DNA from: an uncultured Candidatus Peribacteria bacterium
GTDB taxonomy: Bacteria > Patescibacteriota > Gracilibacteria > BD1-5 > UBA2023
DNA: 64,000 nt
NCBI GenBank assembly: GCA_964596675.1
Contig: CAZQUZ010000003.1
Span: forward strand, 30,198 to 94,197
Direction of reading: 5' to 3'
The notes beneath the pieces are model-generated. The model worked only from the letters and a program-made list of their open reading frames with translations. It ran no database searches and was not told where the DNA came from. Below are positions 11,119 through 42,235 of this stretch, piece after piece. Positions within the stretch are counted from its first letter, which is position 1. Each line of letters opens with the position of its first letter. A program made the position numbers and the translations under genes.

Positions 11119-11173
11119 AGTATATAGGAAAATCTCAGATTGCAAATGGAGAAAAAAGAAATATTATCACTCC

Positions 11174-12154: not shown

Positions 12155-13718
12155 ATCCCATAAAGAGTGGATGCGGTCGAAATGGTCGAGATATGAGCTC
12201 TGGATGCGCCTGAGTCGCTATCATATAGGGATGATCTCGAAGTTCCACGACCTCAGCGAGGCTCCCATCTGGTGAAGTTGCCGATACGATGAATCCCTCT
12301 TTTTCCATCTGAGTACGATATGCAGGGTCGAACTCGAACCTATGTCGATGTCGCTCTATCACTTCTGTGGATGAGTAAATTTTCGCTGCAATAGAACCCT
12401 CGCGGATGATACACGGATATGAGCCGAGACGCATGTTGCCTCACTTGGTCGTCAGCTCTTTCTGATGATCCATGATATGGATGATATTATGTGCGCCCTC
12501 TGGGGTGAACTCTTCACTCGATGCATCAGTGATTCCGAGCACATTTCTCGCAAACTCTATCGCCATGATCTGAGACCCGAGACACACTCCGAGATAGGGT
12601 ATCTGCTTTTCTCGTGCATAACGGGCTGCCATGATCATCCCCTCTGTCCCACGCGTCCCGAATCCCCCAGGGATACAGATACCATCGAGTCATTCGAGAA
12701 GCTTTTCTCCCTCTTTTTCGATATCTTCCGCTTCGACGAATCGGATTTTTATGCGTTTTTTATGAGCGAATCCTGCACACTTTAGTCATTCATTCAGAGA
12801 ATAGTATGCATCTTCGAGTCAGACATATTTCCCGACCATACCGATACGCAGTACTTCGAGCGAGCTATCGATATTCGAGAGGAAGTCTTCCCACGGCTTC
12901 ATATCGAGCCGTGTAAATGGGATATGCAGATTCGAGAGAAGCTTTTCTCAGAGATGGTCTCGATGGAATGCGAGTGGTACACGATAGATCGTATCGAGTG
13001 TCGGCGCTGAGATGACGGCATCCCGCTGGATACCCGATGCCGATGCGATCTTCGCGAGCATGTCTTCTGGGATATCAGTATCAGCACGCACGATGAGAAA
13101 GTCTGGAGAAATCCCATAACTCATAAGCGTACGGATAGAGTGCTGTATGGGCTTCGTTTTGAGTTCTTTCGATGCCATGAGGTATGGCAGGAGCGCCACA
13201 TGGATGAACTGTACATGCTCCTCTCCGAGCTCATGTCTGAGCTGACGAGCCGACTCGAGGATATACTCATTCTCCATATCACCGACCGTACCGCCGATTT
13301 CTATGATGGAGATATCAGCTCCAGCAGATTCGGCTCAGGTGCGGATTTTTTCCTTTACGAGGTCCGTGAGGTGTGGGACGATCTGGACCGTACCCCCGAG
13401 ATAGTCACCGCGACGCTCTCTCGCTATGATCTCTTCATAGAGCTTTCACGAGGTAAATGAAGAAAACCGATTCATATCTGTATCGAGAAATCGTTCATAG
13501 TGACCGATATCAAGATCCGTCTCAGCTCCATCAGCCGTCACGAATACCTCTCCATGCTGATATGGACTCATCGTACCAGGATCCACATTGAGGTATCAGT
13601 CGAATTTCTGGCAGTATATCTTCTTGCCTGCGGACTTCAGCAGTGCGCCGATAGATGCAGCAGATATGCCCTTTCCGATGCCCGAGAGGACACCTCATGT
13701 GATGAAAATGATTTTCAT
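12132..13718 (-). CDS. pyrG: CTP synthase
   Basis: 528 aa. Motifs: [17 protein letters not shown] (the first Gly of GG is TGA, complement 13695-13697), GTVGDMEN, and the glutaminase domain [18 protein letters not shown] and HRHRFEF. Confidence 0.95.
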
Positions 13719-14736: not shown

Positions 14737-14744
14737 AGATGTAT

Positions 14745-17174
14745 ATGTCCCACTCTCATCATACTATCACATACGAGGTCGCCGTGGATCGCGCGAATGA
14801 AAAATGAGTCTTCGTCGCTCGGGAGATGCTCTCGACCCTCCATCATGCGGTCGAGCACCTCCATCCATGGTGGCAATTTTGGCATCATAGCGTCCACCCA
14901 GTATTTCGCCTCGAGATGGTCGCGAATGAGGGGAGGATACGATTTTTCCTCTCGACCGATAGAGAGTTCGCCTCATTTATGACGAGTCAGATATATGCTC
15001 ACTATAGCGATGTAGAGCTCTTCGAGTGTGAGTCACCACTCCCGAAAAAGGCATCCTATCGAGTCCGCGACATCACCCTCGCTCATCACTCCCTCGATAC
15101 ACTGAAACTCTATGTCAATCTAAAGGATCGCACTGAAAAAGAAAGCATCGACCCACTCTCATCACTGACAAGCGCTCTATCGAAGGTGCCAAAATGAGAA
15201 AAATGAGCCTTCATCATCGACTTTGCTCCGCTCGAAGACCATATCTGGAGAGAACATGGGAGTATCAGTATCTGGGAGTCACACTTCATACCGGACTTTC
15301 TCCGCATGCAGGCGCTCCACTTCGCGAGTCATATCGGATGGCTCTTTCTCCCGCTCTCATGGACGGCGAAAGTGCTCTCATTTCTCATACCAAAAGGTGA
15401 AGACGAGCATGATACATGACATGCCCACGAGGACAAAAAAGAAAAAACTGAGACCAAGCTCGAGAGCTATGGCTATCAGGTACAGATACGCATCGTGAAA
15501 GATGTACACGATAGAGTAAATGATGAGATGATACTCCGTGAGCTCGCTGGGAGCCTGAATATATTCGCCAATCCCAATGGCAACCACCTAAAAAGCAAAA
15601 AAACGCGCATCATAGAGAATCTCCCATGACTCCATAAGCTCGCGAAGTCGTCGATGATACTCTCCGTCACCGAACTCGCAGGACTCATCCATCTCCCCAC
15701 GCTCTACGTGAAAACTCCTGGTATCCACTGGGTGACGACCCGTAAATTCGAACCCCCACACAATCTCCCATCTACAGACAATCCAAACACTCCTATCGGC
15801 ATGGCGAACTACCGCGGCGGACTCCAGGGATTCGGGCTCGAGCCTATCGACAGAGCGAGACATACCTATATCATCGGGAAGACCGGTATGGGTAAGTCGA
15901 CGCTCCTCGAGAATATGATATATACCGATATTCTAAATGGTCGTGGTGTCGCTGTCATTGATCCACATGGAGACCTCGTCGAGACGATACTCGCGAATAT
16001 CCCGAAGTCACGCACGAATGATATCGTCCTATTTGATCCAGCGGATCAGGAGTATCCGATAGGATTTAACATGCTCGATAATCCCCACCCAGAGCTCCGT
16101 CCTATCGTAGCTGGTGGGCTCGTATCGATTTTTAAGAAGATGTTTGCCGAGAGCTGGGGGCCCCGTCTCGAGTACATCCTCCGCAACACTATCCTCACAC
16201 TCCTACTCATCCCAGAAACGACACTCATCTCTATCCCACTCATGCTCACCCATGAAGCCTATAGACGTAAGGTTGTCTCGAAGATAGATGATCCTATCCT
16301 CGTCCAGTTCTGGAACGAAGAGTTCGCGAAGATGAGTCCATCGATGCAGAGCGAAGCGGTGAATCCCATACTCAATAAAGTCGGGCAATTTCTCTCATCA
16401 CCAATACTTCGAAACATCCTCGGTCAGCCGAAAAATCCATTTTCTCTGCGGTGGATCATGGATAATAAAAAAATATTTCTCGTAAACCTCTCAAAATGAC
16501 GTATCGGTGAGGATGCGAGTGCCCTCCTCGGTGCGATGATGGTGACAAAGTTCCAGATAGAAGCCATGACACGTGCTGATATACCCGAAGCAGAACGTGT
16601 AGATTTCTGACTCTATGTCGATGAGTTCCAGAACTTCGCGACCGACTCATTCGCGACGATACTCTCAGAGGCTCGTAAGTATAAGCTCTCACTTACTATG
16701 GCGAATCAGTATATCGCACAGATGGCGGAGACAGTACAAGGTGCAGTATTTGGGAATGTAGGATCTCTCGTCGCATTCCAGGTAGGATACCATGATGCGC
16801 TCACACTCGCGGAAGTCATGGGCGGTGAAGATATGATCACTCCCAATGACCTCATGAACCTGAAAAAATACGATATCTACACAAAGCTCCTCATCCATGG
16901 GATGCCATCACCAGTATTTTCTGCGACGACCTATGCACCACTCAGAGAGCGTATCGATGTGCCACCGCAGCAGTCTCGTGACGTCCTCCTGAAAGTCTCT
17001 CGTGAAAAATACACGAAGAAAAAAGACTTCGTCGAGAAAAAAATCTTCGAAAATGTAAATAAGATCCGTGATGAAGAGAAAAAACACCAAGAACAAAAAG
17101 AAGCCTATAAAGAAAAAATTAAAGAAGATCAGCGCATAAAACGCGAAAAAGAAAAAACCGAAAAATGAGCATAA
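14745..17174 (+). CDS. VirD4/TraG/TraD-like type IV coupling ATPase, paralog 1 (809 aa)
   Basis: One frame joins track ORFs 14826-15197, 15654-16499 and 16698-17168 through TGA. Motifs: Walker A IIGKTGMGKSTL, LYVDEFQNF, SEARKYKLSLTMANQY. It has a Lys/Glu-rich C-terminal tail and an N-terminal ~330-aa domain of unknown function. Confidence 0.8.
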
Positions 17175-17227
17175 CTTGCGAATGATACAAAAATCTTTAT
17201 AGTCATACCATATTATCTTTCCTCGAT

Positions 17228-18175
17228 ATGAAATATCTCCTTCTTTTTTTCCTTGCATCTTTCACATTCTCAGATGCATTTGCTGTGAATGATAGTCTCA
17301 ATATTCGCGATACAACGAATGTGATGATATGAGGAAATAGTGAGCATGATAACTTAAGTACTTTTATCTATCCGGTACTTGATTTCTTCTATATACCAAC
17401 TGGAAATAACGATGCTATCCAAAATACATTTATCGCTATAGCAGGAGGAATTAAAAATTTTTTCATTCTTATTGCGGTTATTTTTCTCATCGTCGGTGTG
17501 ATGAAATTATTTTTCTGATGAGGGGACGAAGAGGCACAAAAAAAATGGAAAAGCAATATTATCTGGGTATCTGTGGGAGTATTCTTTATGCAAATCGCCT
17601 ATTCTATATGGCGTACACTCTACTTCGATGAGAACTTTGCTCGTATCGATGGACGACTCGGATGGATGACATGGATAAATGTATTTGAGCCGATAGTAAA
17701 TATCCTCCTCCTTCTGGCATCATTTGGCTTTATCGCGATGGCGATATATGCATTTTATACGATTATCACCGGAGCTGGTGACGAAGAAAAGCTGAAAAAA
17801 TGAAAAAATATCGTCATATATGCACTCATTGGGTACCTCCTTATACGAGTCCCAAAATTTCTCGTCACTGCCCTCTATGGTGAGCCATCGTGAGAGTGTA
17901 AAAATAACGTCTGGAGTTTTTGAACATGTGAAATCGAAAACCAAAATCTTGGAGCAAGTATTAATGTATTCTGAAAAATACTCACCTATCTCAGTAGTTT
18001 TCTCGCACTTTTTGCTGTCATCATGGTTATATATGCTGGATGGCTCATCTTCATATCCGGGGGTGATGAAGAGAAGTTAAAGAAGGCAAAACGTACTATT
18101 ATCTATCTTGCTATCGGACTTATACTTCTCGTAGCCAGTCAGGCAATATTTCGATTTTTCTTTCTGAAAGGCTAA
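17228..18175 (+). CDS. triple VirB2/TrbC-like pilin fusion protein (315 aa)
   Basis: Signal peptide MKYLLLFFLASFTFSDAFA. There are three tandem units, each consisting of a TM helix, then G(G/A)GDEE and a K-rich turn, then a second TM helix: FFGGGDEEAQKKWKSN, ITGAGDEEKLKKGKN and ISGGDEEKLKKAKRT. I translated it codon by codon under code 25. Confidence 0.7.
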
Positions 18176-18190
18176 AAAAACGGGGAATTT

Positions 18191-18219
18191 TTGCATTTTT
18201 ATGAGCTTTTTAGTATAAT
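18191..18219 (+). promoter_or_regulatory. near-consensus promoter TTGCAT-N17-TATAAT
   Basis: The -10 box ends 6 nt before ATG 18226, which implies a leaderless or nearly leaderless mRNA. Confidence 0.6.
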
Positions 18220-18225
18220 GACTTC

Positions 18226-20649
18226 ATGCAGATAGCGGAAGTCATTTTTCTTATTTTAGGAGTACTCTTCGTGGTATGAGTTTTTTATATTCTCACGAAA
18301 AAGAAGATCGCACTAAAACGCTCACTCGATATGAGATTTCTCCGTATTATCATCGGACGGAAAGATAGTGAAAAAGATGAGCGATGAGACACTGTCAAAG
18401 ACTTTCGTGAGCAGATATCTATCATGGAGCAACTCCTCGCAAGTATGAAGTCTCTCTATGTAGGAAATGCGATGGGATGGCTCTTTGGTCAGGAGTATAT
18501 CTCTCTCGAATATATCGCCCATAAACAGGAAATATACTTTTATATCGTCGTACCAAAAAAATCGAAAATCCTTGTCGAAAAACAGATTCTCGGTTTTTAT
18601 CCAGATGCGAGTATCGAGGAGACGGATGAAGTCAATATTTTCGAAGGGCGGAGTGTGGTGCGAGGCGAGATCTTGAAGCTCAAGAAACATGATGAATTCC
18701 CAATACGTACCTATCAAAAACTCGAGACTGACCCGATGAATAGCCTCCTTTCTGCACTCGGAAAACTCAACGAGGAAGAGTCGAGCTCCATCCAGATTCT
18801 CATGAGACCAGTAGATGATGACTGGCAAGACCGAATCCGTAAACATATAAAAAAATCTGAGAAAAAATGATGACACCATATGTCATGGAATCCTCTCGAT
18901 TGGATACTTTGATTTATCGATGCATTTACACGCTGAAACTCTGAAAAATCATCTTCAGATGAACATGATGAGAGTGAGCCGATCGATGAAGAAGGGCTTA
19001 TGAAAGAAAAAATAAAAAAGACAGGCTATCAGGTAACAATACGTGTTATTACGACTGGTAATGACGAGAATGATGTCTATGCGGAGCTCCAAAATATTCT
19101 TTCTGCATTTTCTCAGTTCGCTTCACCGATGTATAACCGATTTAAAGCCGTAAAGAAAAAATCTATCTCACTCCTCATCAATAACTATATTTTTCGTCAA
19201 TTTAGTGCTTGGCAAGGTGGATATATACTCAATAGTGAGGAGCTCGCGACACTTTTTCACTTTCCGCATAGTAAATATAATAAGCAACCTGAGATTCGTT
19301 GGCAGCGGTTTAAGCTGATAAAGGCACCAACCAATATCGCAAAAGAGTGACTGTATATCGGAGATAATGTATTTCGTGGAGAGAAAAAACCGATTTTTAT
19401 CAAAAATGAGGACCGATTTCGACATTTTTATGTCATCGGACAGACTGGTACAGGTAAATCATCTATCCTATCGACGATGGCGCGCCAAGATGTGCGCGAG
19501 TGACGTGGACTTGCCATACTCGACCCACACGGTGACCTCGCGAAAGAACTCGTATGATATATCCCTAGAGAACGTGCTGATGATTTGGTATATTTTGACC
19601 CTGGGGATCTCGCACGTCCTATGGGGCTGAATATGCTCGAAGCCGCGAATGATGACGAAAAACAAATGGTCGTAGCCGATGCTACGAATATCATGATAAA
19701 ACTCTTTGGAAGTGAGATATTCGGACCTCGTATCCAGGACTACTTTCGCAATGGATGTCTCACCCTCATGGACTATCCACAAGGCTGAGCCATCACTGAT
19801 ATTATCAGACTCTTTACAGATGATAACTTCCAGCGGGAGCGCCGAGCTACCCTAAAAAATGCAGTCGTAAAAGCCTGGTGGGATTATACGTATGCCAAGA
19901 TGGGTGAGCGAGAAAAAGGAGAAATTATCCCATATTTCGCAGCGAAATTCGGACAATTTATCACCAATACCATGATGCGTAATATCGTGTGACAGACGAA
20001 GAGCGCATTCGATATCGGAGAGATCATGAACAATGAAAAACTCCTCCTCATCTCACTCTCGAAAGGTATCATCGGTGATCTGAACTCGACGCTGCTCGGT
20101 CTCATCCTCGTCTCGAAGATACAGATCGCAGCCCTACGCAGACAAAATATGGCGAAAGAGGATCGTAAAGATTTCTTTCTCTATATCGACGAGTTCCAGA
20201 ACTATGTGACCGACTCTATCGAGTCTATCCTCTCAGAAGCTCGTAAGTATCGCCTCGGACTCGTCATCGCGCATCAGTACCTCGGACAACTCGAGAAGTC
20301 AGATGCTCTCACGAAATCGAATCTGAATCTCAAGTGAGCCATATTTGGTAACGTAGGAACTGTCATGAGTTATAAGCTCGGTGCGGAGGATGCTGAGTTC
20401 ATGGCGAAGCAATTTGCTCCAGCATACTCTGAGCAAGACTTCGTCAATATGGATAAGTTTAAGGCTGCACTCAAACTCTCGGTCGATAATCAACCAACAC
20501 CAGGATTCTCCCTCTCACCACCGAATCCATTTGCTGAGATGCCAGATGCAAAAATCGGAGCCGCCCTGAAAGAGCTTTCGCGATTAAAGTATGGTCGCGA
20601 GAGAGAGTTCGTCGAGAAAGAAATTATTTATCGCATAGGTGCTGTCTAA
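18226..20649 (+). CDS. VirD4/TraG/TraD-like type IV coupling ATPase, paralog 2 (807 aa)
   Basis: N-terminal TM anchor (IFLILGVLFVVGVFYIL). Motifs: Walker A VIGQTGTGKSSI, LYIDEFQNY, SEARKYRLGLVIAHQY. It joins six track ORFs (18424, 19000, 19585, 20026, 20365...) in one frame. The N-domain is paralogous to gene 14745-17174. Confidence 0.8.
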
Positions 20650-20651
20650 TT

Positions 20652-21611
20652 ATGAAATTTTTTTATACTTTCATCTCGCTTGTGACTGTCTCATCCAGTA
20701 TCATACCGATAGTGGCAGCTGAGGATATGGTCGGCTGTGATACGAAGACGTATGCATGCTATACGCAAAAAGTATCTCAGAGTTGCACGAAAACAGGACT
20801 TCCCTGGACCAAAAATCCGAATCTTTGAAAGACAAGTTCCTGCGACTATCCTGATTTTACAGAGGAAGGACTAAAAAGTGTAGTGAATTGTATGGAAAAT
20901 GCGGATACAAAAAGCGGTGGAGGATTTCTCGAGAATCTCACTCTTTCGAATCTCGGTAATATCCCTGGATTTCGTACTACAGAAATCGCACGAAAAATAT
21001 ATCGAAAAAATATGAATGCCGTATTTGGCTGTGCTGTGCTAGCAAGTCGCCAGGACAAGCTCACTCGACTGGAGGAATCCATACGCTGAAATTCTCAGGC
21101 GAGCGACATCCAAAAAAGTCTAGAAAAAGAACGGAAAAAATATGAGTCTCTTATGTCACGCATGAATTGTAATCAAAATCGTACAGAAAGTCCCGAAGAT
21201 AAAGTCATCGACCGGCTTTCTGCGAGCGCGATGCAAGAATATTGTAGTTATACGTATTATCTCGATTATCTCGAGGCAAATCTACAAAATGATTTTTCTG
21301 AAGCAGAAAAGACAGAGTTATCACTCCGCGATGTCACGCTCCAAAATCGTGCTACTACCACAGAACAAGCCGGGAAAATATGGAGAACATACCAAGCTAC
21401 GATTGACTCAGAGCGCTCCAGAGCACATGAAACTGTACCCAAGGCCATCCTCGCTTACCAAGAAATGGATCGTACTTATATCACACATATCCTTCTCGTC
21501 ATCATTTTCGATGACTATCTGAAACTCAGGGGCAACCTCGATACCTACCTCGCTCTCATTTCCCAAACATTCGAAAAAGCATATAATGCGCAGGATGCAC
21601 GGCAAAGATAA
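20652..21611 (+). CDS. secreted Cys-rich protein (hypothetical, 319 aa)
   Basis: ATG lies 2 nt after the upstream stop. It has a signal peptide (MKFFYTFISLVTVSSSIIPIVAA) and several Cys in the N-terminal third. It joins track ORFs 20883-21089 and 21153-21611. Confidence 0.6.
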
Positions 21612-22017: not shown

Positions 22018-22102
22018 TGGTGCCCAGGAAGAGACTTGAACTCTTACACCGTACGGCAACGGCTTCTAAGACCGTCGTGTCTACCAATTCCACCACCTGG
22101 GC
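22018..22102 (-). tRNA. tRNA-Leu(TAG)
   Basis: 85 nt. Acceptor GCCCAGG/CCTGGGC, anticodon loop CTTAGAA, long variable arm, T-loop TTCAAGT, and an encoded CCA. Confidence 0.9.
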
Positions 22103-22114
22103 AGAAAAAACTAA

Positions 22115-22199
22115 TGGTGGGCCGGGTAGGATTCGAACCTACGAAGTCGTAGACAAAGGATTTACAGTCCTCCCCATTTGACCGCTCTGGAACCGACCC
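22115..22199 (-). tRNA. tRNA-Tyr(GTA)
   Basis: 85 nt. Acceptor GGGTCGG/CCGGCCC, anticodon loop CTGTAAA, long variable arm, T-loop TTCGAAT, and an encoded CCA. Confidence 0.9.
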
Positions 22200-22288
22200 A
22201 GAAAAAAAGTTTTAACCCTCAGAATTTTAGATTTTCGATATTGTTTTTTACCAAAATCCAATATTCCAAACATTAAAACTCCAGAGAA

Positions 22289-22364
22289 TGGAGCCACCAA
22301 TCAGACTTGAACTGATGACCGCCGGTTTACAAAACCGATGCTCTACCAACTGAGCTATGGTGGC
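22289..22364 (-). tRNA. tRNA-Thr(TGT)
   Basis: 76 nt. Acceptor GCCACCA/TGGTGGC, D-arm GCTCAGTTGGTAGAGC, anticodon loop TTTGTAA, T-loop TTCAAGT, and an encoded CCA. Confidence 0.9.
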
Positions 22365-27471: not shown

Positions 27472-28806
27472 TTATTTTTCTGAATCTTTCAGAAACCATT
27501 TTTTCCATAATTTTTGGAAAAAATTCGGCTTTCTAAATTCATTTTTGACAGATTCTTCAGATATAGGATCTGAGGGATTTGGATTGGGTACTCCACTCAG
27601 GGGTGAGTACTCTTCTTTTTTTTGAGTATCTAGCTTTTTAGATACTTCATCTTTATTGTTTATTATAGGTTTTTGTGCAGATTTCACTTCTGGAGATACT
27701 GTGGATATATGGGTTTGAGGTTCTAGAGATTTTTCTATAGGATGATTCTGTTTTTTATTTTTAATCTTCTTCACTCCTATACTCACCTTTTTTTCTACAC
27801 TACCATCCGTATGAGTCTGAAGTACATCCTGTGGTATGATAATGGTTTCTTCCCCATCTGTATAGGTAGAGACGATTCTCTGGGATGCGTCTGTCAATTC
27901 TCATATATAGAACTGGTTCTCTTTAAATACTCATATAAATCTATTTCCATTCCTGATATACAATCCCTTCCCATCTCGCATATCATTTTTCCACTCTCAT
28001 TTATAATAGTCTCCATTCTGAAAATTCATAATCCCGTACCCACTGCGTAGATCTGATTCATAGGTTCACCTATATTCTCATTCTGGATATTGTACTGGGA
28101 TGACATCTTCCTTTTTCTGGATAGGAATTTCAGTATCTTCATGGGAAACCTCCGCATCAGATTCGTTTTCCCCGTCTTTCGTACTAGTAGTACCATCTGC
28201 ATTATAGAATTTTCATGTCTCGAAATCATCATCTCGAAACGTTCAGTCATAGTACGACCCGTCAGAAAAAACCAACTGCCCACCACCATTTCGCATATCA
28301 TCTTTCCACTCTCACGAATAACCATTTTCGGAACTATCAATGAATAATCATATACCATGACGTTTACCCTCTACAAACTGTCATGTATATACTCCACTAC
28401 CTGGATATTCTTTTCTTTGGAAATCATCATCTACAGTTACCACCGTTGGCATCGGGGCAGCCTCTACTGGAGGCACTAGTCATTCTGAGATAGTGTTATC
28501 TGGTATGGAACTATCCGATGGTGCGATACTCTGAGGAGTAAGTGTCAAAATATCACCGAGAAGTGCTGTCTTTTTTGGTCTCGCTGAAAATGGTGCATTC
28601 TCTGCCACTTCTTCTGCGAGGGTTTTTAGCATTCTTTTATTCTCTCTATCGAGAGATAGAAAGATCTTTTCGAGTTCCTTTGTACTCTTATTTGCATTTT
28701 CACTATCACCTGCTCGTAATAGGGCATGGGTGATTCATTCTCATTTTCTTATTTTTACTTCTCATTTTTGGATGTTTTCACGTACTGATTCTATATCGAG
28801 TGGCAT
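27472..28806 (-). CDS. MORN-repeat protein (444 aa)
   Basis: I translated it codon by codon under code 25. MORN-like units: YTGQFVEGKRHGIG, YSGEWKDDMRNGGG, YDGTFRDD, YRGTYESDLRSGYG, YKGEWKNDMRDGKG. It has a Lys/Pro-rich C-terminal tail. Confidence 0.75.
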
Positions 28807-28892
28807 AAGTATATATATAATAGAGTTATAATAATAGCGCTTTTTTATAAATTTGTCAAAAACAATGCGTAATAGGAGGCTATTTTGGCATC

Positions 28893-29837
28893 CTAAAATA
28901 AATATGGGGCATATAGAGTAAAACTACTTCCTGATTTGGCAAATGTGGAATCGAGCAATATCTGGGAAGCTTGGCTTATTCAGAGTCATTCTCATACAAG
29001 TAATGTAATTTCTAATGTTGCTGGATTTCTCTGGATAGCATAGGTCGGACGTATCTGAAAACTCTGTCCATCTTTATCTATTCACTTTATGAATCCATCA
29101 CTTGCGATGGAAAGATAATTCTTTTTCATATCTCCGCTGAGTGAGATATTCATCTGAAGTCCATCTCATGTATCCTCTAGAAGTCGGAGATCTACACGTA
29201 TAGAATGATATGTTTTTTGAAAATGTACTCATCACACACCATCTGACTCTATCCATCCATCTAAAGGATCAAACATATACCCATTCGTAGCCTGAAAAAA
29301 TGGCTGTATCTCTATGGCTGTTTGTTTCTCATGAAATCATGGATGCTGTAGAAATTTTTGGCGAATCCTGAGTGACTCATCTTCCAGGTACACTACTTCA
29401 GGTGAGACTGTGGTGTTTTGAGTTGTATATTTGGATTTTTGGGATACATTCTCTGGTGTAGAGGTAAGTACTCCATCTTGGATAGATTGTATTTTATTTT
29501 TCAGTTTATTTGGTACATTCTCGACTACCTCAGGAGTGATAGATTCAGCTTTTTTAGCATCTTTTTTTATCCGTGATCTTCTAGCAGCATTACCAGCGGC
29601 AAGTAAAACTCATCATAATCATAAGAGTTCTACTCCATAGCTTCTAGTCTCTCATGAGACATCTATACCGATATTATGAGCATACTGTTGCATCTCTGGA
29701 GATGATGTTATTATTCGCTCGATATTTGCACGCACCTCCTCTTGGGTCATCTCATGTACTGGCTTTGCGGATAGAGTCGGCGTGGATAGCATGAGACTCC
29801 CTGCGGTAAAAAGAGATGTAAGGAGTTTTTTTGACAT
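28893..29837 (-). CDS. secreted/membrane hypothetical protein (314 aa), island gene 1
   Basis: Signal peptide MSKKLLTSLFTAGSLMLSTPTLSA and a Gly-rich TM segment VELLGLGGVLLAAG followed by RRSRIKK. It has about 13 in-frame TGA codons. TAG stop at 28893-28895. Confidence 0.55.
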
Positions 29838-29851
29838 AATAAAACCGATAC

Positions 29852-30631
29852 TTATCGTACTAAAAATGCTTGTTTTGTCTCCAAGAGATATAATTTTTCC
29901 CTATCCGTCATCTTGGGAATTTTTTTATTTGAGGCTATTTCTTTATTTCGATCTAAAAATATCTGAAAATCTCCAAGAGTATAGGATTGATTTTTATAAT
30001 CAGGGGTAAATCAATTCTCTCGCGTGAGGAACTCATGAACTTTTCATGGAAATCAGATTAATGGCTGATTTTGTATACTCTCTGGGGTATATACTGTTTT
30101 TTCTATTTTCTTATAGAGCAGATTATTTTTTTCATCGAGTGAAACTATAAACATCCCATCAGAATATGTTTTATCTGGATTTTCATGAAATCCATTCGAT
30201 ACAAGGAGTTCATGTGTTTTGTTCATAAATCCATTCGGCCTTACTTCCATATCCTCTGATAAAAATCATTTTCATATATCTTGTGATGGGGTAATATGTT
30301 TCGCATATTTCTCCATAAGAGTATCTATCTTCGCATCATCGAGTCGTATGATATCCCCCTCACGCACACTATGTACGGCTCTATACCCATATTTTTTGGT
30401 AGATATTCTATTTGGTGTGAGCGCATGCTCATCAGTACTAATCACTCGCGAAAGATCACGCAAGAGTTTACGGGTATTATTATCTAATTTTTCTTTTTTT
30501 AAATCTATACCCATAGCCACGGCAAGCTGCTGGGAGATACCATTTCCTCTTTCGATAGTGATACCCTTTTTTAAGGCCTCTGAGAGCTTATCGGATTGCT
30601 CTGATGTAAGGAGATTTTCTCGGGTTGACAT
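29852..30631 (-). CDS. hypothetical protein (259 aa), island gene 2
   Basis: Track ORFs 30272-30631 and 30053-30250 share a frame and join through TGA. TAA stop at 29852-29854. No motif recognised. Confidence 0.55.
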
Positions 30632-30767
30632 ATATACAAAATAATTATATATAATATATCACTATTTTTAGAGTATGTCAAATAATATTACTCTCCCTTT
30701 GGGTTATAAACTTTCTTTTTATATTCAGTTATGATACGATATATATAGTAATTTTACCTTTCTCTAT

Positions 30768-31967
30768 ATGGCTGAAATGAATAATACTCTGGAACAGGCT
30801 CCAGAGAAATCACTTACAAATAATACTGACTATATCCGTGCATCACTCGGGGATGCATATACATATTATCAAAATAATAAATCTCTCGATGGCTGGGAAA
30901 CAAAAGATAGCTATAGCCTCTCGAATGCGATGGGTGCTCATCAGATAGCGAGTAATACTCTCCATAAGCGTGAGAACATCACTCTACAAGATATCGATAC
31001 GGCATTGGATCACACATCATATAGTTCCACCCCTGAATACAGGGAAGCCTATCTCGCATATGCTCGTGGGAAGTGGGGCATCATACAAGCTGCGAAAACA
31101 GAAGAAAATCTACTCAAAAAGGAAGTGCTATGAAATCCTGAGTCTGCTCAAGTTACTAAAGAAGAATCCACTGTAAACTCGGAACAAAAACCTGAAACAA
31201 AGCCTGTACCCGAAAAGAATACTAAAAATAATCTTACTGAACAACAGGAAAATCTCTCAACACCTGGGACTAAGGGGGGTACAAGCAATCAATCATCTGA
31301 GAAAAGAGAAGGGATGAGTGATAAGTCCATCTTAGAATATAATAAGCAGTATATAGAGAGGAACTGACTATGAGAAGGTAGTTATTATACTAAACAATTC
31401 CCTGAATTAGAAGATCCAACTAAAAAGAATATTATCACCATACAACATAGGTTGAATACATGATTCGTAAATACAACACAAACCATAAAACTCACTCAAG
31501 ATGGAATATTATGAAAAAATACATTGGCAGCAATGCGGAAATTTATAGATACTAAAAAAGGGGAACAAAAAAAAGTAGACAATGGAAACAAGCCACTGTC
31601 GAATGTAGAAGAGAGAAACAAAGAAAAGATTATCTGAGAATGAAGCAAATTTATAGATAAAATCATAGCGAATAAAGAAATTTTTAATAAATTTATTGAC
31701 CTGAATGTTAAACAATATTATCTGGAAGATATTACTCCATTTAATAAGATAAAATATTTTGTGAATATTGAATGAGCTAAGCAAGGAGATCTACAGATGA
31801 GTACAAATATTGGCCACGCATATGAGAATGTGCTGAGTGGAACGAATCTAACTCAATGGAGGAGTCTCACGGAGAGAGGGAAAGAGGCTATTATACAGGA
31901 ATTAAATACTATATGGAAAAAGCGAGCAAATACAGAAATCCAGAAGATGAATACCACTAAAAAGTAA
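30768..31967 (+). CDS. hypothetical protein with putative peptidoglycan-binding-like repeat (399 aa), island gene 3
   Basis: Open through 8 TGA codons. The segment IQHRLNTGFVNTTQTIKLTQDGILGKNTLAAMRKFI resembles a PG_binding_1 helix pair. The central linker is low-complexity and rich in Lys, Glu and Thr. Confidence 0.6.
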
Positions 31968-31992
31968 CATTGTCTAATCCATTATTAGGAAT

Positions 31993-32024
31993 AAATCACC
32001 CCCATGTAGAATGGGGGTGATTTA
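31993..32024. terminator. bidirectional terminator
   Basis: 12-bp stem AAATCACCCCCA / TGGGGGTGATTT between convergent genes. Confidence 0.65.
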
Positions 32025-32043
32025 TTCAATATGTATAACTCTA

Positions 32044-34188
32044 TTATATTACAGTGGAGAATTGGCTAGTCATTTTCTCTGTCATTTCTTTTTGTGTATA
32101 TTTCTTATCTTTTATCACTACTGATTCAGTATTACCATAGATAGCGAGGAGTGTGGTAGCGATAGTTCCACCGAGTACGAGTCATCCGGCCACGTGACGC
32201 AGTGGTCACATATACCAGAGTATTGCTATAGAGGCTCCTGCACCTGCGATAAAAATAGCCCTTTGTGGTAGAGTGAGAGCTGCCCACACTTCAGCGATAA
32301 AACCACCGATTTGTGATAGTGATGACTCCGCGAGTCACTCGAAAATATGACGTATCATCTTATATGCTTCAGGACTGAGATATTGAGGCTTCTGCATTTC
32401 TGCGATGAGCTGCTTGTCAAAATGTTTTCATCGAAATGTTCCATCTTCTCATAAAATATTCCACATCTTCATATACATATATGCTTCTTGTCATGGATTC
32501 ATCTCGGCTTTCGTCATATTTTTCCCTCCGCAGAGAGCATACATACGAAATACATCTGCGAGACTCATAGATGCCTTGCTTGATAAAAAGTCTTGATAAA
32601 CATCTTTCTGACCAAATGAAAAATCACTACTGAGTGTCTGCTGAAATTCTCCCCAAAATTTAACTATATTTTTGAGTGTTGATTTATCTTTCTCAGAGAG
32701 AGAAGCCAGTTCATCGATTTTAGCAGGAGTATAATTTTTTATATCATCACCATGCTGAGCGATTATATGAGTGAGGAGGCTCGAGGATATGTCTAGATTC
32801 TTGAGGATAGATTTATATTCTACATTTTGCATCAGTGATGACGCCGAGAGACCTTTGAGAGGCATATCGATATGATCGCTGATCTCTCAAAGAAACTTGC
32901 CGAGATCTCCAGGACCGGTAATAGCTGTACTTGGCTCTATATTTTCGAATTTTCCTGCGAATCCGAGATTGTTATGTAAATCTGCAAATATTGTATATAA
33001 TTTTGTATTTGCTCATACATTTTGATTCGGTGAATGCTGATTCAAAAAGGCTCGTCATTTTCATGTCGTAATCGACTCTAAAACATGAAACAATAAATCA
33101 CCACTTATGGATTCATCTTGGATTCATATGTCTTTTTTGAGTCCGCTCTTATCAGAGGTTTTGCGATACTTATTATAAAGATCGATAGATTGTCCGAACG
33201 TGAGTTTCTGAAAAATCTCATTATGAAATATACCATCTATCTGTGGGTAGGGAAAGAGTTTATCCTTCAAGAGAGGCTGTATATACATCCTCACGAATCA
33301 TTTCGTCGCACCGATATAGAGCATCTGATGTTCTGAGTTTTCAGCTATAGACTCAGTCGAGGCAGTATTTGCCTCTTCTCATGAAGATACTGTAATTCAT
33401 GAATCTATTCAGGCCAGCTTCAGCTCTTCTGGTGTCAGAGATTTAGATACATCGATACCCATGAGTCTTGCTAAAAATCAGTAAAACATCACCTTAATAC
33501 TTCCCCACATACCATCGAATCATCCATTTTTCTTTTCGGAAAGAGCTTCTTTCATATCATTCGCGATACTCATCTCATCCCATCAGAGAAATTCTGCGAA
33601 TTTCTTCATAGGATTTTTTTTCATTTCTGTAAATTCTGTATCCACTCATTTTATAGCATCTCCAGCAATATCTGTCAATCATTTCTGAGTTTCTTTGAAT
33701 ATGGAGGTACCACTATTTTCTCCTACGAGAGCTGTCGATATCAATCCTCATCCTATTGCTGTCTGGAGGGTGGCAATAGGGCTTTCTGTGAGTGAGGATT
33801 TTTTAGAATTATTATTCTCGACTTCTTGCTGGAGTTTGGCTAGATTTTTTTCCATATCTACCAAGGCTCTATTAAACTCTTTTTGTTTATTAGATTCTGC
33901 ATTATGTTTACGCAGAGTTTGGATAGTACTCTCGAGTTGTTCCTTAAGGGGTATATTCATTCTGAGTGCGTCGTCTGTTTTTATGGTAGAGAGTAGATTG
34001 ATAGCCTTAGTATATTCGGCTTGTACAGTTTTGTACTCTTCACTCACTATCTTACCAATATCTGGCACTGCTCTATCAAATTTTTGCCAGCTCGCATCAA
34101 GTGTAGCACGAAAATTCCGAAGCAATGTATCTGATGGCATTGATTTCGGAGTGACGGGGGAGTTTTTTAGAATTTCTGGCGTTGTCAT
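32044..34188 (-). CDS. large orphan membrane-anchored protein (714 aa), island gene 4
   Basis: Codon-by-codon code-25 translation gives one frame from ATG 34188 to TAA 32044-32046, with 21 in-frame TGA codons and no TAA or TAG. It has an N-terminal coiled-coil-like region. The C-terminal glycine-zipper helices are GGFIAEVWAALTLPQRAIFIAGAGASIAILWYMG and GGLVLGGTIATTLLAIYG. Confidence 0.65.
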
Positions 34189-34197
34189 ATTAAAAGA

Positions 34198-37100
34198 TTA
34201 TTTAATCATATATTGTATAAGTGCGACAGTATCAGATCATGGATACTCTAGATCAAAATCTGTTATATACTCAGCAAGTAATTTACCCTTCCATCCACCG
34301 AATGCTGTAGCAACGGCTAGATTTTTTAACAGCTCTTCTCGGGTTATTTCTTTACCTCCTGCAGCATCCGCTGCTGTAAAAGCCACAGTTTGGATGATTC
34401 ACATTCTCATATTTTCTTTAGAAAATGCTGCTTTTCCAACCTCCATAATCTTCTTTGATGTTTCCTTAAAACCATTTTTTAAGATCATAGCATCGAGTAA
34501 GTCTCCGTAGAACCGCCGTCCTGTAATAGTTTCTAATTTTCCTCAAAGAATTTTTGATCATTTTCAAAGCTGTTCGGACAAAGATACTCCCTGTATCTTA
34601 TCCCATGATCGATTGATCCATTCTTTTGAGTTCATGGCAAGTGACTTTACTGTATTTTGATTGTTGGTACCTGATTCTGTATGGGATGAGGTTGTATTTT
34701 TTGTATTCCCTTTTGTTAGGCGCGCATTTCATGTCGAATCTACCATAAAGTCAGGTCTTTGTTCACTCGCATGTACTTCTCCAGATTTTCATCGAGTCAA
34801 TTTTATATTCCCGAGACGATTCATCCCTCTCATGGCTATTGCCATCATAAATCCTTGTATAATAGACTCATGAGACCACTCACCCCCATCAAGATAGACA
34901 TTCAACATTCCTCATCAGATACCGAGCATTGTTCCATCGATAGCAAGACGTTGCATAGCGGCGGGAATATTATAAGATTTCTGATCTAATTGAGGTGCTA
35001 TATTGAGTTTACCGTGCAACTGGGAGAGCAACTTACCCGCTCACATAAACGCGATAGAAGTCATCCATCCACTTGTATCAAATGTCTGATTTATAGCACC
35101 ATTTATCCCATTTTCATAACCACCGACTACAGCACTGTATCCTACATGAAATGCTGTACCAGATCCGATTGCTCCTATAGCTCCAGCACCGATACGCCCT
35201 AGGGTGCTGAGGTTTCGAAGCTTCTCCAATCGGGCCATAAGTGCTGCTCACCTCACACCATTTACAGCCCAATATCCAGCACTTCCTGTAAATGCACCTG
35301 CTGCCACTGCAACTACCTGAACCGCTAAAGTCTCAAGCGCAAGACTATACCAGTCAGCCCGAGTATCTTTAATAGTAAATAATCCAATTCATTCTATATC
35401 TTTAAAAAGCTCTATCTCTCCAATAGTTCATTTTGATGTTCATTGTTTTACTGCATCGTATGCAAGATTATATTGTAGTGCCATCATCATAGCATTTTCT
35501 TCATCGATTTTCATCATAGCATCCAGCATAACAGAATCATTCTTTGCTTCTTTGGCAAAGCGATTTTTCCTCTCTCCCTGCATAGCATAATATCGCGCTC
35601 TTTTTTCTATCATATCCTCTGTACGATCAGGAGAGAGTCAGAGCTCTCGAATCGCATTTTCTGTAAAATTTCCTGACTGTAATTTTTGTAATTGTGTCGT
35701 AAGTAGGGTTTTATCTACTAATTTTTCTGTAAGTATATCACTCACGATTGTGTATCCATCTAAACCATCTTTTATATACTCATAGAATTTTATCGTAGCA
35801 TCTGGATGATTACTTCGTAATAGCCCTTTCAGATTCTGAAGATGTTTTTCATTCAGATCCGGCAACCACTTTCATAGAATTTTATCGATAGTATCGAAGA
35901 ATTGTTCAGGAGATAATTTCCCAGATAATAGATTTTCTATTTCCTTATTTGCATTTATCTTATTTCCAAGGGCTTGGATAAGGAGCAGGTATTTTTCGAG
36001 TATTTTTTGTTGGTCCTTAAACTTCTCGAATCCATTTTTTGCTTCTGGTGAAAGAGTGCTATATTCGAATAATTTTTGGTTACCATCTTTGCCAATAATG
36101 TACATATTCCCTTCACGAAAAGCCATAACTGGCATCCAAATATTGGATTCTTTTGCTTCTGTTGTATTTGTAATTACTGGTTTCCCTGAAAGGTTATCAT
36201 TTTTTTTTATATCTTCCTCTCATATTGGAAGAGAATGTGAAATAATATATGCCTCCATCTGACTGAGCGTCATATTTTGAGCACGAGCAGCATCTGTCTT
36301 ACGGAGATTCTCGATGATTGGATTTTGTGAAATTCGAGCAAAATAATTGAGAATTGTTATACGAATTGACTCATTCTCTAATATTGTATCGATAGCTTTT
36401 TTTCATGCTGGATCGAGCGTATCGAATCCAATACTTGCTTTTATCTTTTCATTTGTGGCTCATTTTTCATCGTGGATATGGAGCCATTGATAAACACTTA
36501 AAGAACCGATAGGCGTAACGATATTATTAAAAACATCGATATTACTATCTTCTTCGAGTCATAGGGTGGCCCTTCTGAGACTCTGAGTATCTGTGATATG
36601 TATGGATGTATTTTCCTTCTCTTTATAAGGGATGTTCGACACTCAGGCTATTTCAGGTGTTATATCTTCTCATCTGGAATCTCCATTCTCTCATGTTGTA
36701 GAATTTATAGGTTTTATACCATTAAAAATTTCTCCCAATTTATCAAAATTCGAGATCGCACCTACACCGAGCATAGCACCGAGAGTCTTCCAGAATCAGA
36801 GTCATTTCGATGAAAACATAGACCATAATATGCCTCATATGATAGCGACACCTCCGAGAGGACCGGCCTCTTGTATCATCGTACCGAAAAAATCAGTTGT
36901 CCCACTTACAGCCACTCATACTCATTTACCTATACCACCCGCCACAGCACCGACTCATCGTCCCGTCTTTGCAGCTACAGAGTTATCAGCAGGATTATTT
37001 CCATTTTCTATAGGATTTATGGCTGCTTGCGTAGCTTCTCGTATGAGTGGTGAATTATTTATCTTTTCTGCGGCACTGAGAACGGGTCAGATAGATTGAT

Positions 37101-38076
37101 ATTGTTCTACTGTAAGGGGAAAATCTATATTATTGAGATAGCGTGCCGATGAGAGAAATGATTGTTCAGAGGCAGTAAGAGTGCCTCATTGTGATTTTTT
37201 ACGTAAAAATGATGTATAATCTTCTTTTGTCACTTTATCAGAATATATAAGTTCCCCATTTTCATTCTTTTTCGCCGTGTCACTTACGCTCTTACTATAA
37301 TTCGCAAATGATGGATTATTAGCATACAATAATCCTGATTGTAATGCTGAGACAAGTACATTAGATTTTGCGAGATTATGATTTATCTTTGTTTCCACTT
37401 CGACTCTATCATTTTTCTGAGAGTCTATGCGTATCTGATTCTGTGATGTAAATGTAAGTTGGTATCCGAGTCCCTGAAGATCACTGAGCAACATTCCGCC
37501 GAGCATACCACGTACGAGTGGTTCATATTTATGTATTTCTCGCATATCGAGATTTTTGGCTGCAGGGATATCCTGTATCCACTCCAGAGTAGCATATTGA
37601 TCTATCGTATTAATCGCTTTTTGGAGGTTGTCTAGACTCATTTCTGCTAAAAATACTCGGACTGATTCTGCTTTTTTTTCGACCTCATTTCTGATTTTTG
37701 TATCTACGGATTGTACATTTTCCTGACTCTCTATATTCACTACTTCTTCACTAGAAGTTAACGCCAAATTATTTCATTTTTTCTGGGGGAGCATGCGTTT
37801 TTGATTTCTAGAACTGTTGGTTTTTATAGTATTTTTTTGTTTCTCATAACTATTCATGAGAGTTTCATATTCGCGAATCTGGCTCTCCATAAGAGCATCC
37901 TCTCTTTGCGGTTGGAGGATATTTTGTGCTTGCTCTTGTGGTGTCATTTCTTTTCTATATTTTTCTATCTTTTCTCTCATCTCTTTTCTATCGAGCAACG
38001 TTTCTTTTTTTATATTCCCAGATTTGAGTATATCGATTTGTTTCTGGAGCTCTTGATGCAATTCTCTGTCAGACAT
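34198..38076 (-). CDS. giant orphan protein with glycine-zipper membrane segments (1292 aa), island gene 5
   Basis: Codon-by-codon code-25 translation gives one frame joining track ORFs 37774-38076, 37186-37767, 35872-36135, 35638-35865 and 35041-35238, with 32 in-frame TGA codons. An in-frame TAA lies 9 nt upstream of ATG 38076. TAA stop at 34198-34200, 9 nt before the next gene. Gly-rich hydrophobic blocks lie around nt 36780-36960 and 35040-35330. Confidence 0.65.
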
Positions 38077-38176
38077 AAACTTATATTAAAAATGTAATTA
38101 CCCTTTCACTCTACCATATTTGGCTATATTTCGCAAATATTGAGAGCAAATTATTGAGTTTTAGGGAGAATTATAT

Positions 38177-38217
38177 AAAAAAATACTATAAATGCAATTT
38201 ATTCATAGTATTTTTTA
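38177..38217 (-). terminator. terminator after island gene 6
   Basis: Stem ATACTAT / ATAGTAT flanked by A- and T-runs. Confidence 0.5.
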
Positions 38218-38238
38218 TGAGTCAAGATATTTTTAGAA

Positions 38239-39105
38239 TTACACATTCCTGCTGAGAATATCCATATATCCATCCAATCGAGTGATATATGTATCGAGAG
38301 ATTTTTCTTCTGATGGTGATATTTTTTCTTTTAGGAACATCGTATGTCGAAGCTGATTCTGAAGTGTACGGATATATCATATTTGAGTAGGAATCCCCTG
38401 GATAGCTTCTGCAATTTCATGAAAGGAAATATAATCCGATGATGTTAAGTCTACTCACTCTTTTGCTTTTGCAGATTGTATTTCTATAGAAGTCCATTGT
38501 ATTTTTTCCTCGATATTCGATAGTGTTGTTTGGATTTTTCAGATAATAGTATTAAATCGCTCTACATCTTTCGTCACAGGGATAGTAGCTGCACCTTTAA
38601 CTATTGCAGATTGCATATGTTTCTGCGCTGATCGAGTCAATCCGGAAGGTGCTACACTTTTAAAATATTCGATTATCTGTTTTTTTTCTTGGTGAACTCG
38701 TATATCTGCACGACCAGCATAGGACTGAATGATGTTTTGTATATATATCAGCTCATTACCAAATTCTTTTAGAGCTAATTCAAGACGTTTCCATTGATTG
38801 CTAGCGACGAGTTGGAGCTCTGTTTCTTTGCGAGCATATTCGGAAGTAGGCAACCATCTTTTAGTGGTATCTAGTATTTCCATTGCTCTGCCATGAAATT
38901 CCTCATTAACATGATTTACTGTAAGTCACAAAGAAATCACATTTATATATTGCAGAGGATTCGAAGATCAAAATATACTTGTTTTAAAAACAAATTCATC
39001 TGGTATAATATATCTTCATCACGAATTGTCAGTAACAGAGTTTGCTGTAGAAGGGGGATTCTCTTCTTGTTCGGGATTGTCCGATATATTATGTGGATTA
39101 TTCAT
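38239..39105 (-). CDS. hypothetical alpha-helical protein (288 aa), island gene 6
   Basis: Track ORF 38539-38883 is extended downstream through TGA to TAA at 38239-38241, and upstream in an open frame to ATG 39105. An alternative start is ATG 38883. A TTGACT-N17-TATAAT-like promoter lies about 30 nt upstream of 39105. Confidence 0.5.
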
Positions 39106-39344
39106 AAATATGAAGTGAAATAATAATATTATTATATAATATAATTTTCATAAAGTCAATATATCTATTTCAATTAATTGATTGACAAATGTATATAAAT
39201 GTATCGAAATACACATTTTTATTTGCTTTTTTTCTTTTCTCTTCTATACTCCGAGCGAATTTTATTTCTTATGTGGTGTACACTGTAGTATCCGGTATAG
39301 AGCCGGGAAGATTCACCCATTATTTTTTCACTCCCATTTCGATT

Positions 39345-41230: not shown

Positions 41231-42235
41231 ATGTTACAGATAAACCCCGAGACAACTGAACATCAAGATAACCCTATATCCTCTTTAGAAACAGAAAGAC
41301 AGGTGAGGTATTTTTCTGAACGAAGTATGAATATCCTTGAAACCTGAGGCAATATACTCGTGCTAGGTGGTGGTATATTGGTATTGTGAACTAAGAATAC
41401 AGGACCTATATTAGAGCTTTTAGGAACCACTACTATGCTATACTGATGATATTTTTTACATAGACTTGATCGCATGATATCCGAATTCAGTTGAACAGAA
41501 CCGTACGTTACAAAATTCAAAAGACAACTACGCTCAAGCCATATACACCATAATCCCGCATATACACTAGAACCTTTACCCACAAACCTAAATAATATCA
41601 CCTGGTATGTAAATGTATCACCATATATTAGATGGAGGGTTCCTGTGATTCAAAATAAAATATCAGATTGATTAAAATTTTATCCTGTAGAGCTGTTAGA
41701 AAAACATCTTTCGACTATTATAATAGAGTCTTTTCCTGGTACAATCAATAAACTTTGATCAGCTTCTCGGGATCAAAAAACAATACGCATAGGACCCGTC
41801 GCTGATCCTTTATTAGAAATAATTTTGCATCATGAGATGGTACATATGATCTTTTTACACTGAGTGATAAAAAAATTTATCAGAGAATGGACGACTCAAT
41901 TTTGAGAATATAATGGAGAACACCATGATTATGCTCCACACCCATTGGAAAATAGGAAAACATATGGTGCAATATGAGGGGCTCCGGAAGATATGGCAAC
42001 TATTGGACAATATTTATTCTCGAAGTCGGGATGGGGAACCTTAGAAGAAACACTCTATCGCGATACAACGTGAAGCATACCCAGTATATTACAACAAAAA
42101 ATCGATACTCTTATACGATTTTTCGAGAAACAATCAAAATGAAAAATGAATAAAGAATATTTTAACCTCATAAGAATAGGGGAAATAACAAATGGTGAAG
42201 ATGCTCAAACATATTTTAGAACCGCGCGAAAGTAA
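41231..42235 (+). CDS. hypothetical protein with HExxH motif (putative Zn-metallopeptidase, 334 aa)
   Basis: Open only under code 25 (about 12 TGA codons). It contains LEIILHHEMVHMIF and a hydrophobic N-terminal segment (NILVLGGGILVLG). Confidence 0.55.

Follow-up and report, generated by a model that had tools for sequence, protein, structure and literature searches.

The stretch of DNA analysed here, which we call the window, spans 64,000 nucleotides (nt) and carries between era and typA a block of genes dominated by two large neighbours, referred to below as BIG and partner. All translations were made with genetic code table 25, in which TGA encodes glycine. Open reading frames (ORFs) of at least 100 amino acids (aa), summed over six frames and including overlapping shadow ORFs, amount to 44,458 aa under code 25 versus 14,114 aa under table 11, and the typA product of the window is 77–89% identical to the products of Gracilibacteria metagenome-assembled genomes, so we assign the window to a code-25 Gracilibacterium; an exact look-up of the window typA returned no matching contig. 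Between positions 27472 and 39105 the coding density under code 25 is 97%, and an ORF of 259 codons or more would arise by chance with a probability of ~5e-6 per start. The original prediction had placed six genes here, and all six were confirmed as long ORFs under code 25: minus-strand genes for proteins of 314 aa (28893–29837) and 259 aa (29852–30631), a plus-strand gene for a 430-aa protein (30675–31967), and, again on the minus strand, partner (714 aa, 32044–34188), BIG (1292 aa, 34198–38076) and a gene for a helical protein of 288 aa (38239–39105). At 27472–28806 lies a further minus-strand gene, encoding a 444-aa MORN-repeat protein (Pfam MORN, E = 8e-17). The six proteins yielded no significant match in Pfam, PHROGs, NCBIfam or PADLOC, which bears out the earlier statement that they cannot be placed. 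The earlier proposal of an undescribed system is supported in so far as these genes are indeed orphans and the system that they make up has not been described.

The BIG and partner genes are co-oriented on the minus strand, 9 base pairs (bp) apart, and both encode modular proteins. The N-terminal module of BIG (N-module; ~aa 1–600, nt 36277–38076), the part that is common to all family members, combines a coiled coil with a conserved alpha/beta domain and a hairpin rich in glycine (aa 372–447, nt 36736–36963) with 26% Gly, six GxxxG motifs and a conserved SSKG-GFWKTLG. Its C-terminal module (C-module; ~aa 600–1292) carries glycine-zipper hydrophobic helices at aa 905–1090, a region rich in small-xxx-small motifs. 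In partner, an N-module conserved across the family (aa 1–273, nt 33370–34188) is followed by a C-module (nt 32044–33369) that ends in a two-helix hydrophobic hairpin (aa 645–684). A hydropathy scan, which applies a simple scale and is not a dedicated topology predictor, marked paired segments at 404–422 and 431–447 and a strongly hydrophobic helix at 912–934 in BIG, and hairpin helices at 645–663 and 666–684 in partner.

Comparison with other contigs or loci (labelled L###) and with database protein homologs (P####) divides the C-modules of both families into distinct types. Homologs of the BIG N-module were found in L081, L083, L084, L085, L002, L087 and L095, and L082 has a homolog that matches over the full length (33.5% identity, E = 4e-180). 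The BIG C-part is of type 1 in L081, L083, L084, L085, L095 and a 942-aa gene of L002, whose protein matches the type-1 module with 97.8% probability in hhalign, and of type 2 in the window and L082; hhalign gives only ~20% between the two types, which are unrelated beyond about 120 residues. The partner C-module of the window is of type A, with relatives in L086 (P0038), P0037 and L087, and type B is represented in L081, L083 and L084.

Replacement of whole modules is seen between very close relatives. Logan contig L092 matches window positions 34926–33362, that is, the end of BIG and ~275 partner codons, at 95.7–97% DNA identity. The similarity ends at nt 33362 (~partner aa 275), right after the motif ITVSSGEEA, and the remaining ~390 residues of the L092 partner, which are of type B, are unrelated to the type-A residues of the window protein. 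In L092 a homolog of the 259-aa protein (67% aa and 79% nt identity) follows 58 bp downstream of the partner gene, so the 430-aa gene, the hairpin beside it and the type-A module (~30632–33362) have no counterpart there. Between window and L092 the synonymous divergence (dS) is 0.08–0.11 in the common part and 1.07 in the 259-aa gene, and the ratio of nonsynonymous to synonymous divergence (dN/dS) is 0.25–0.30 in all three segments (0.30 in BIG; 0.28 in the partner N-module, at a dS of 0.08). The locus is thus a recombination mosaic, and its genes are functional and under purifying selection. BIG also differs from its counterpart in this 96%-identical strain by a 29-aa indel in a Ser/Thr/Asn-rich linker (window 34664–34750, aa ~1110–1138). 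A second pair of loci, L086 and L093, shows the same on a larger scale: the flanks are ~92% identical, and within the cluster two segments (L093 3289–6322 and 10095–19028) give way to sequence that is either unrelated or 31% identical, the first covering the first cluster gene and the second covering partner together with 9 kb downstream, where L093 has Transglut_core and AAA_5 proteins versus a PG_binding_1-like protein and a 1012-aa orphan in L086. The earlier proposal that the block had evolved in, or been exchanged among, code-25 organisms or their phages therefore holds for the organisms, given the need to read TGA as Gly and the mosaic relation to a 96%-identical strain, but not for phages, to which no link was found.

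These replacements raise the possibility of polymorphic toxin-like competition, in which the N-modules would deliver, the glycine-zipper C-modules would damage membranes and the downstream genes would include protection factors. The sharp breakpoint past the conserved N-terminal region, the co-variation of downstream genes in both comparisons (window/L092 and L086/L093), the glycine-zipper hydrophobic hairpins and the Transglut_core protein downstream in L093 all fit such a system. So does the sole domain-level hint that we obtained, in which residues 855–923 of the distant family member P0019 (L085 10001–12874), the C-terminal hairpin of a type-1 BIG module, score 22.5 bits against Pre-toxin TG (PT-TG, PF14449; cut-off 23.5) and P0024 matches the same family at E = 0.07. 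PT-TG is, however, absent from the window BIG and from the family consensus, which matches DUF4112 at 20 bits, under the cut-off of 23.3. Moreover, no toxin or immunity family was found among the window proteins with Pfam, NCBIfam or PADLOC, the downstream genes encoding orphans of 259–444 aa, and family scans of these proteins detected no LXG, RHS or other trafficking domain. With C-modules of ~400–700 aa, large downstream genes and no dedicated secretion genes adjacent, the locus is unlike typical toxin/immunity pairs, and we regard this explanation as quite improbable. Still less probable, and in our estimate hardly credible, is an anti-phage defence locus with membrane-disrupting effectors. 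Hypervariability and modularity would suit it, as would the AAA_14/DUF4143 ATPase genes interleaved in the L087 cluster and the AAA_5 gene downstream in L093, but these ATPase genes occur in two loci only and look like insertions, the window genes encode no nuclease, ATPase or sensor domain, and PADLOC matched 0 families among the six proteins.

The BIG–partner pair, whole or split, was found on about a dozen Gracilibacteria-type contigs. BIG and partner are adjacent in L081 (1142 and 646 aa), L082 (1247 and 726 aa), L083, L084 and L085. In L002, whose typA is the closest to that of the window (89%), BIG is divided between two genes, for an N-part of 770 aa and a C-part of 942 aa, and after these comes a partner relative of 604 aa; this cluster lies directly upstream of typA, with the same arrangement and relative strand as in the window. 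L095 carries, at 6588–12921, four genes in the same order (BIG-N, BIG-C of type 1, a partner-N-like gene and partner-C), the third of which is weakly similar to part of the L002 partner-like protein, at E = 0.001 only; an N_methyl prepilin gene follows. The relatives lie nearly all on contigs with many in-frame TGA codons; L095 has a guanine-cytosine (GC) content of 0.52 and no in-frame TGA in its cluster genes, and from its sequence the two families may extend beyond heavy TGA users. Larger clusters, with three or four large orphan genes, partner and more genes, occur in L086, L087, L090 and L093, and the large genes (~750–890 aa) of the L086, L087 and L090 clusters resemble neither half of BIG in profile comparisons. 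Few relatives were found overall. A phmmer search with the BIG homolog P0001 against 1.84 billion representatives returned 34 matches, many of them code-11 fragments, a word-indexed search with BIG returned at least one relative, and a partner profile search returned 15 proteins; Joint Genome Institute (JGI) metagenome scans yielded nothing, either with a profile or with an exact 56-mer common to the window and L092.

Synteny around the pair gave a mixed answer when the era–typA interval was compared between genomes, as the original prediction had suggested. The L002 cluster, like that of the window, stands beside typA, but in L007 and L003 era and typA are only 4.5–7 kb apart (4.5 kb in L007) with no pair genes between them, and elsewhere the pair occupies other positions. 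Several clusters adjoin an ABC ATPase gene that we first took for FtsE; we now treat this adjacency as synteny and draw no functional inference from it. The L002 BIG-N protein also matches, at a chance-level BLAST E of 0.14, a window gene that adjoins a SufB-like gene. Wall-related neighbours comprise a PG_binding_1 protein in L082 (which, by reading of its sequence, has a 3D-type domain too), a glucosaminidase in L085 and a weak PG_binding_1 match in L086.

The distribution of the pair bears on a second alternative, namely that BIG and partner are a housekeeping envelope scaffold, serving division, shape, or S-layer or wall anchoring, with low constraint in a reduced genome and with module swaps as by-products of recombination. 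The occurrence of the pair in many Gracilibacteria lineages, often beside core operons such as S10, is compatible with this, as are a dN/dS of ~0.3, denoting purifying selection, and proteins that lack signal peptides and whose large helical domains are predicted to be cytoplasmic and anchored by hairpins. A core scaffold would not, however, typically swap unrelated C-modules between 96%-identical strains, the downstream gene sets differ wholly between L086 and L093, and the gene has repeatedly been split or fused. On balance, we find a scaffold unlikely, although it is to be taken seriously.

The block had been singled out as AT-rich. Sliding-window statistics confirmed its low GC, at 0.367 for 28893–39105 against a window mean of 0.417, a value as low being reached by 1.3% of equal-sized windows. 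Its start had been set at 28893; the MORN gene (27472–28806), however, shares the low GC and high TGA use of the block, so that the low-GC, TGA-rich segment begins at 27472 and includes this gene, and 27472–39216 is the lowest-GC 11.7-kb stretch within the window, the block having a GC of 0.365. The block is also, as had been noted, very rich in TGA-Gly, with TGA making up 35% of its Gly codons compared to 17% elsewhere in the window. The low GC is not peculiar to it. By GC content at third codon positions (GC3) the window genes fall into two classes, and among the 44 that encode 150 aa or more, 13 have a GC3 of at most 0.335: seven of these are in the block, and the other six include genes for Lgt, an S41 peptidase and an S-layer-like protein with SLH domains, the gene next lowest in GC3 being that of a type IV secretion system (T4SS) pilin. 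ComEC (Competence, DUF4131; 56809–58332), Lgt (56045–56842) and the PDZ-S41 peptidase (60440–61699) are native members of the low-GC class. Across window genes, GC3 and the TGA share of Gly codons are negatively correlated (Spearman −0.53), and so are locus GC and TGA share across 30 Gracilibacteria loci (Spearman −0.73), where the share falls from 86% at GC 0.22 to 4–5% at GC 0.52–0.58. TGA accounts for none of 55 Gly codons in typA, 3 of 59 in EF-G and none of 89 in the S-layer protein, and these counts suggest that genes with high expression, as these are presumed to be, avoid TGA-Gly whatever their AT bias. The S-layer-like protein (965 aa, 50858–53755, minus strand) avoids TGA although its gene has a GC3 of 0.29. 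From this avoidance, together with the GC3 correlation, we conclude that high TGA use is the look of AT-rich, probably weakly expressed genes. For future scans, this is a caution that low GC and high TGA-Gly in code-25 genomes mark a class of genes and a level of expression rather than a foreign origin.

The composition of the block is thus probably not foreign. An island acquired horizontally between era and typA, whether its source was a phage, a plasmid or a code-25 organism of lower GC, could account for the lowest GC of the window, for the mosaic divergence, and for the absence of pair genes from the 4.5-kb era–typA interval of L007 and from the vicinity of typA in L003. The other low-GC3 native genes are, however, equally AT-rich, in the other genomes compared the GC of the pair matches that of the genes around it, and, because its core families are spread across Gracilibacteria with native composition and the L002 copy also adjoins typA, we do not interpret the block as a foreign island; the earlier description of it as an island is not upheld in this sense. 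In agreement with what had been stated then, family and repeat scans found no integrase, recombinase or transposase among the genes of 27472–39105 (Pfam, NCBIfam, PHROG) and neither tRNA genes nor significant direct repeats at the block borders, where repeats are short and at chance level. An Rfam scan of the window returned tRNAs only, the nearest to the block being at 22018–22364. Phage similarity was limited to chance-level PHROG matches, tblastn and megablast against phages and scans of viral contigs returned nothing, and the locus has no phage or plasmid similarity at the level of DNA, protein, profile or fold. Horizontal acquisition as an island is, in our view, very improbable.

Around the pair, the accessory genes form a variable periphery. 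The first 120 aa of the MORN protein are 42.5% identical (E = 4e-25) to L093_12039, a 196-aa protein encoded directly after the L093 partner gene. The first 110 aa of the 314-aa protein are collinear with the product of a 464-aa gene two genes downstream of the same partner; the two share a signal-like N-terminus, an MTQE motif, a hydrophobic segment and a basic stretch, with a pairwise E of 0.004 and a score reached by 0.05% of shuffles. Because of these homologies we extend the variable tail of the locus to 27472 and count the MORN gene in. An N-terminal domain shared by the MORN and 259-aa proteins (KG-x-x-I-x-[KR]-G-x-GI) was considered and dropped, the match having an E of 1.9 and the hidden Markov model missing the 259-aa protein. 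In the 430-aa protein, the possible peptidoglycan-binding repeat noticed earlier corresponds to a PG_binding_1-like motif at aa 253–291 (nt 31431–31547); BLAST aligns it weakly (E = 0.04) with the PG_binding_1 region of a protein in L086, and in Pfam it stays below significance. The start of this gene may be at Met32 or Met35 (nt 30768 or 30777), given the gap of 43 bp to the divergent gene. The 288-aa gene, upstream of BIG, has its own promoter-like site at 39131–39159 (11 of 12 matches), and an AT-rich hairpin lies behind it; the searches returned no homolog of its protein from any source.

The two hairpins that had been thought to bracket the island (31993 and 38177) both fall within the block, where each stands between transcription units. 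At 31989–32027, between convergent genes, the first forms a perfect inverted repeat of 17 bp around a 5-nt loop and is a likely bidirectional terminator ending the BIG–partner transcription unit. The second, read from the sequence at ~38177–38215 between the 288-aa gene and BIG, has a ~12-bp stem of A–T pairs only and was not reported by the terminator scan; it is at best a weak terminator candidate. Directly downstream of typA, outside the block, we noted a low-GC orphan (41231–42235, plus strand) with an HExxH motif (HHEMVHM), a glycine-zipper N-terminal segment and a weak homolog beside typA in L011, which may be a membrane metalloprotease.

Structural comparison, which had been proposed along with the original prediction, placed neither of the large proteins. 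The AlphaFold2 models, built with family alignments, are of the homologs P0001 (BIG; a sequence translated with code 4, with Trp in place of Gly) and P0038 (partner) rather than of the window proteins themselves. The P0001 model, with a mean predicted local distance difference test (pLDDT) score of 70, has confident domains at the N-terminus (10–320) and in the middle (470–600 and 690–780), and the P0038 model is mostly helical, with a mean pLDDT of 62. Foldseek returned no match to the Protein Data Bank (PDB) at E ≤ 0.001 for either model, and sequence profile searches of the PDB were empty; against BFVD, the BIG model likewise had no match at E ≤ 0.001, the weak ones having E ≥ 0.009 and template modelling scores (TM-scores) <0.1. 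The block had been described as encoding secreted or membrane proteins. This agrees with the glycine-rich hydrophobic hairpins of the two large proteins and with the 314-aa protein, which has a signal-peptide-like N-terminus and then a hydrophobic segment and an R/K-rich stretch, but by the hydropathy scan it is the only one with such an N-terminus, and BIG and partner lack a signal peptide.

Taking these observations together, we read 27472–39105 as a native, lineage-restricted, recombination-prone Gracilibacteria locus with a variable envelope or host-contact complex, rather than as foreign DNA, and give this reading about an even chance of being correct. The swapping of tails between near-identical strains suggests, at the level of sequence, a role in contact with other cells. 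In such an arrangement the N-modules of BIG and partner would assemble one membrane-anchored complex, and diversifying pressure would act on the C-modules, whose ends are glycine-rich membrane hairpins, together with the variable accessory genes (those of the MORN and signal-peptide proteins and, elsewhere, of wall-binding or wall-degrading proteins). Homologous recombination, anchored in the conserved N-modules and flanks, would shuffle alleles among Gracilibacteria, and low GC and high TGA-Gly would be the mark of genes that are weakly expressed, evolve fast and are subject to AT pressure. The variable part would most likely be the interface with the envelope of a host, prey or competitor cell. 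Module swapping is usually seen in genes for host recognition, antagonism and immune evasion, and this is one ground for placing another cell's envelope on the far side of that interface. The other is that the lineage is presumed to depend on hosts (PMC11452946, PMC8080830).

Several observations weigh against this interpretation. No stretch of the window has a lower GC than the block, whose allele may derive from a lower-GC Gracilibacterium. The position of the locus varies by genome (near typA, the S10 operon, mnmA or an ABC ATPase gene), so that some mobility or frequent rearrangement is conceivable. Wall-hydrolase neighbours are found in only 2–3 of ~12 loci and are absent from the window. 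None of the retrieved loci encodes a relative of the 288-aa or the 430-aa protein, and the genes for these two are assigned to the locus by position and composition. A physical interaction between BIG and partner is read solely from the adjacency of their genes, and, judging from their predicted topology, the bulk of both proteins would lie on the cytoplasmic side unless they were exported by a non-Sec route.

A more specific version of the contact hypothesis is that BIG and partner are the missing, divergent membrane part of a Gracilibacteria contact apparatus, either as a translocon (a VirB6 analogue) or as substrates that end up in the host or prey membrane, with the C-modules setting the host range and with T4SS-like ATPases and pilins ~11–13 kb away as partners. 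A survey of patescibacterial T4SSs, which are of the monoderm-conjugation type, could not detect VirB6 homologs in Gracilibacteria (PMC12102498), so that membrane components of these systems are missing, and this, together with the T4SS-like module of the window, leaves room for such an apparatus. The module (14739–21611), separated from the block by tRNA genes, EF-G and era, comprises TrwB/VirD4/HerA-type ATPases (14739–17174 and 18226–20649), a protein with three T4SS_pilin (PF18895) repeats (17165–18175) and a secreted orphan (20652–21611). Homologs of the pilin and of an rlmH-like gene adjoin typA in L010 and L012, as does an ATPase homolog in L010. The other genomes lend the idea no support: no T4SS gene was found within ~10 kb of the pair in L081–L095, nor any other linkage of the pair to T4SS genes in the genomes examined, and T4SS component profiles (Pfam, NCBIfam), VirB6/TrbL, VirB8, VirB3 and VirB1-like ones among them, matched neither the six proteins nor 40 family members. 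We consider it a long shot.

Gracilibacteria are mostly known from metagenomes and are presumed to live on other cells, and to our knowledge almost nothing has been established about the molecules that they use there. Orphan membrane genes are common in their genomes. Against this background the locus is a concrete candidate, offering two families that have as yet been seen on no contigs but those of Gracilibacteria type, confidently modelled domains that match no known structure, and swapping of modules and downstream genes between near-identical strains; the conserved pairing and the documented swapping make it a specific, testable lead. If the locus were tied to host contact, C-module types could mark host range and serve as handles in co-culture.

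Among known systems, phage tail tape-measure proteins resemble BIG in being very long and helical, with glycine-rich hydrophobic segments, but BIG has no PHROG match, no phage genes nearby and no relative on viral contigs. Polymorphic toxin systems, reportedly described by Zhang et al. in 2012 for the contact-dependent growth inhibition (CDI), Rhs and LXG/type VII secretion system (T7SS) types, share with the locus a conserved N-terminal part, unrelated C-modules, a sharp breakpoint between close strains and co-varying downstream genes. The locus differs from them in having no recognised toxin, immunity or trafficking domain and no adjacent secretion apparatus, and in its large, helical, membrane-anchored C-modules and its two modular proteins in succession. 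Another parallel is offered by translocated membrane effectors with bilobed hydrophobic hairpins, such as the chlamydial Inc proteins and membrane-inserting T4SS effectors. By the simple hydropathy scale, BIG and partner both combine the lack of a signal peptide with a paired hydrophobic hairpin, and, like Inc-type effectors, they have moderately hydrophobic hairpins and long coiled-coil or helical domains, are restricted to a lineage and evolve fast. Unlike for those effectors, there is no type III secretion system (T3SS), and the T4SS-like module, ~11–13 kb off, shows no linkage to the pair in the ~10-kb flanks retrieved for the other loci.

With the patescibacterial T4SS, the likeness lies in the TrwB/VirD4-like ATPases and T4SS_pilin array of the window and in the peptidoglycan hydrolase genes that flank the pair in some genomes, and the difference in that BIG and partner carry no VirB6/TrbL, VirB8 or VirB3 signal and never stand beside VirB4-like genes in the examined loci. 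From the same phylum, a PTD-repeat surface gene of a Gracilibacterium has been described as hypervariable (Sieber et al. 2019, PMC6851277); the variation there takes the form of a repeat array at the nucleotide level, confined to a single secreted protein. Our locus is similarly strain-variable, but it has no tandem repeats and varies instead by the replacement of whole modules and genes. We class it with the envelope or effector loci that are modular and vary between strains, its protein families being undescribed.

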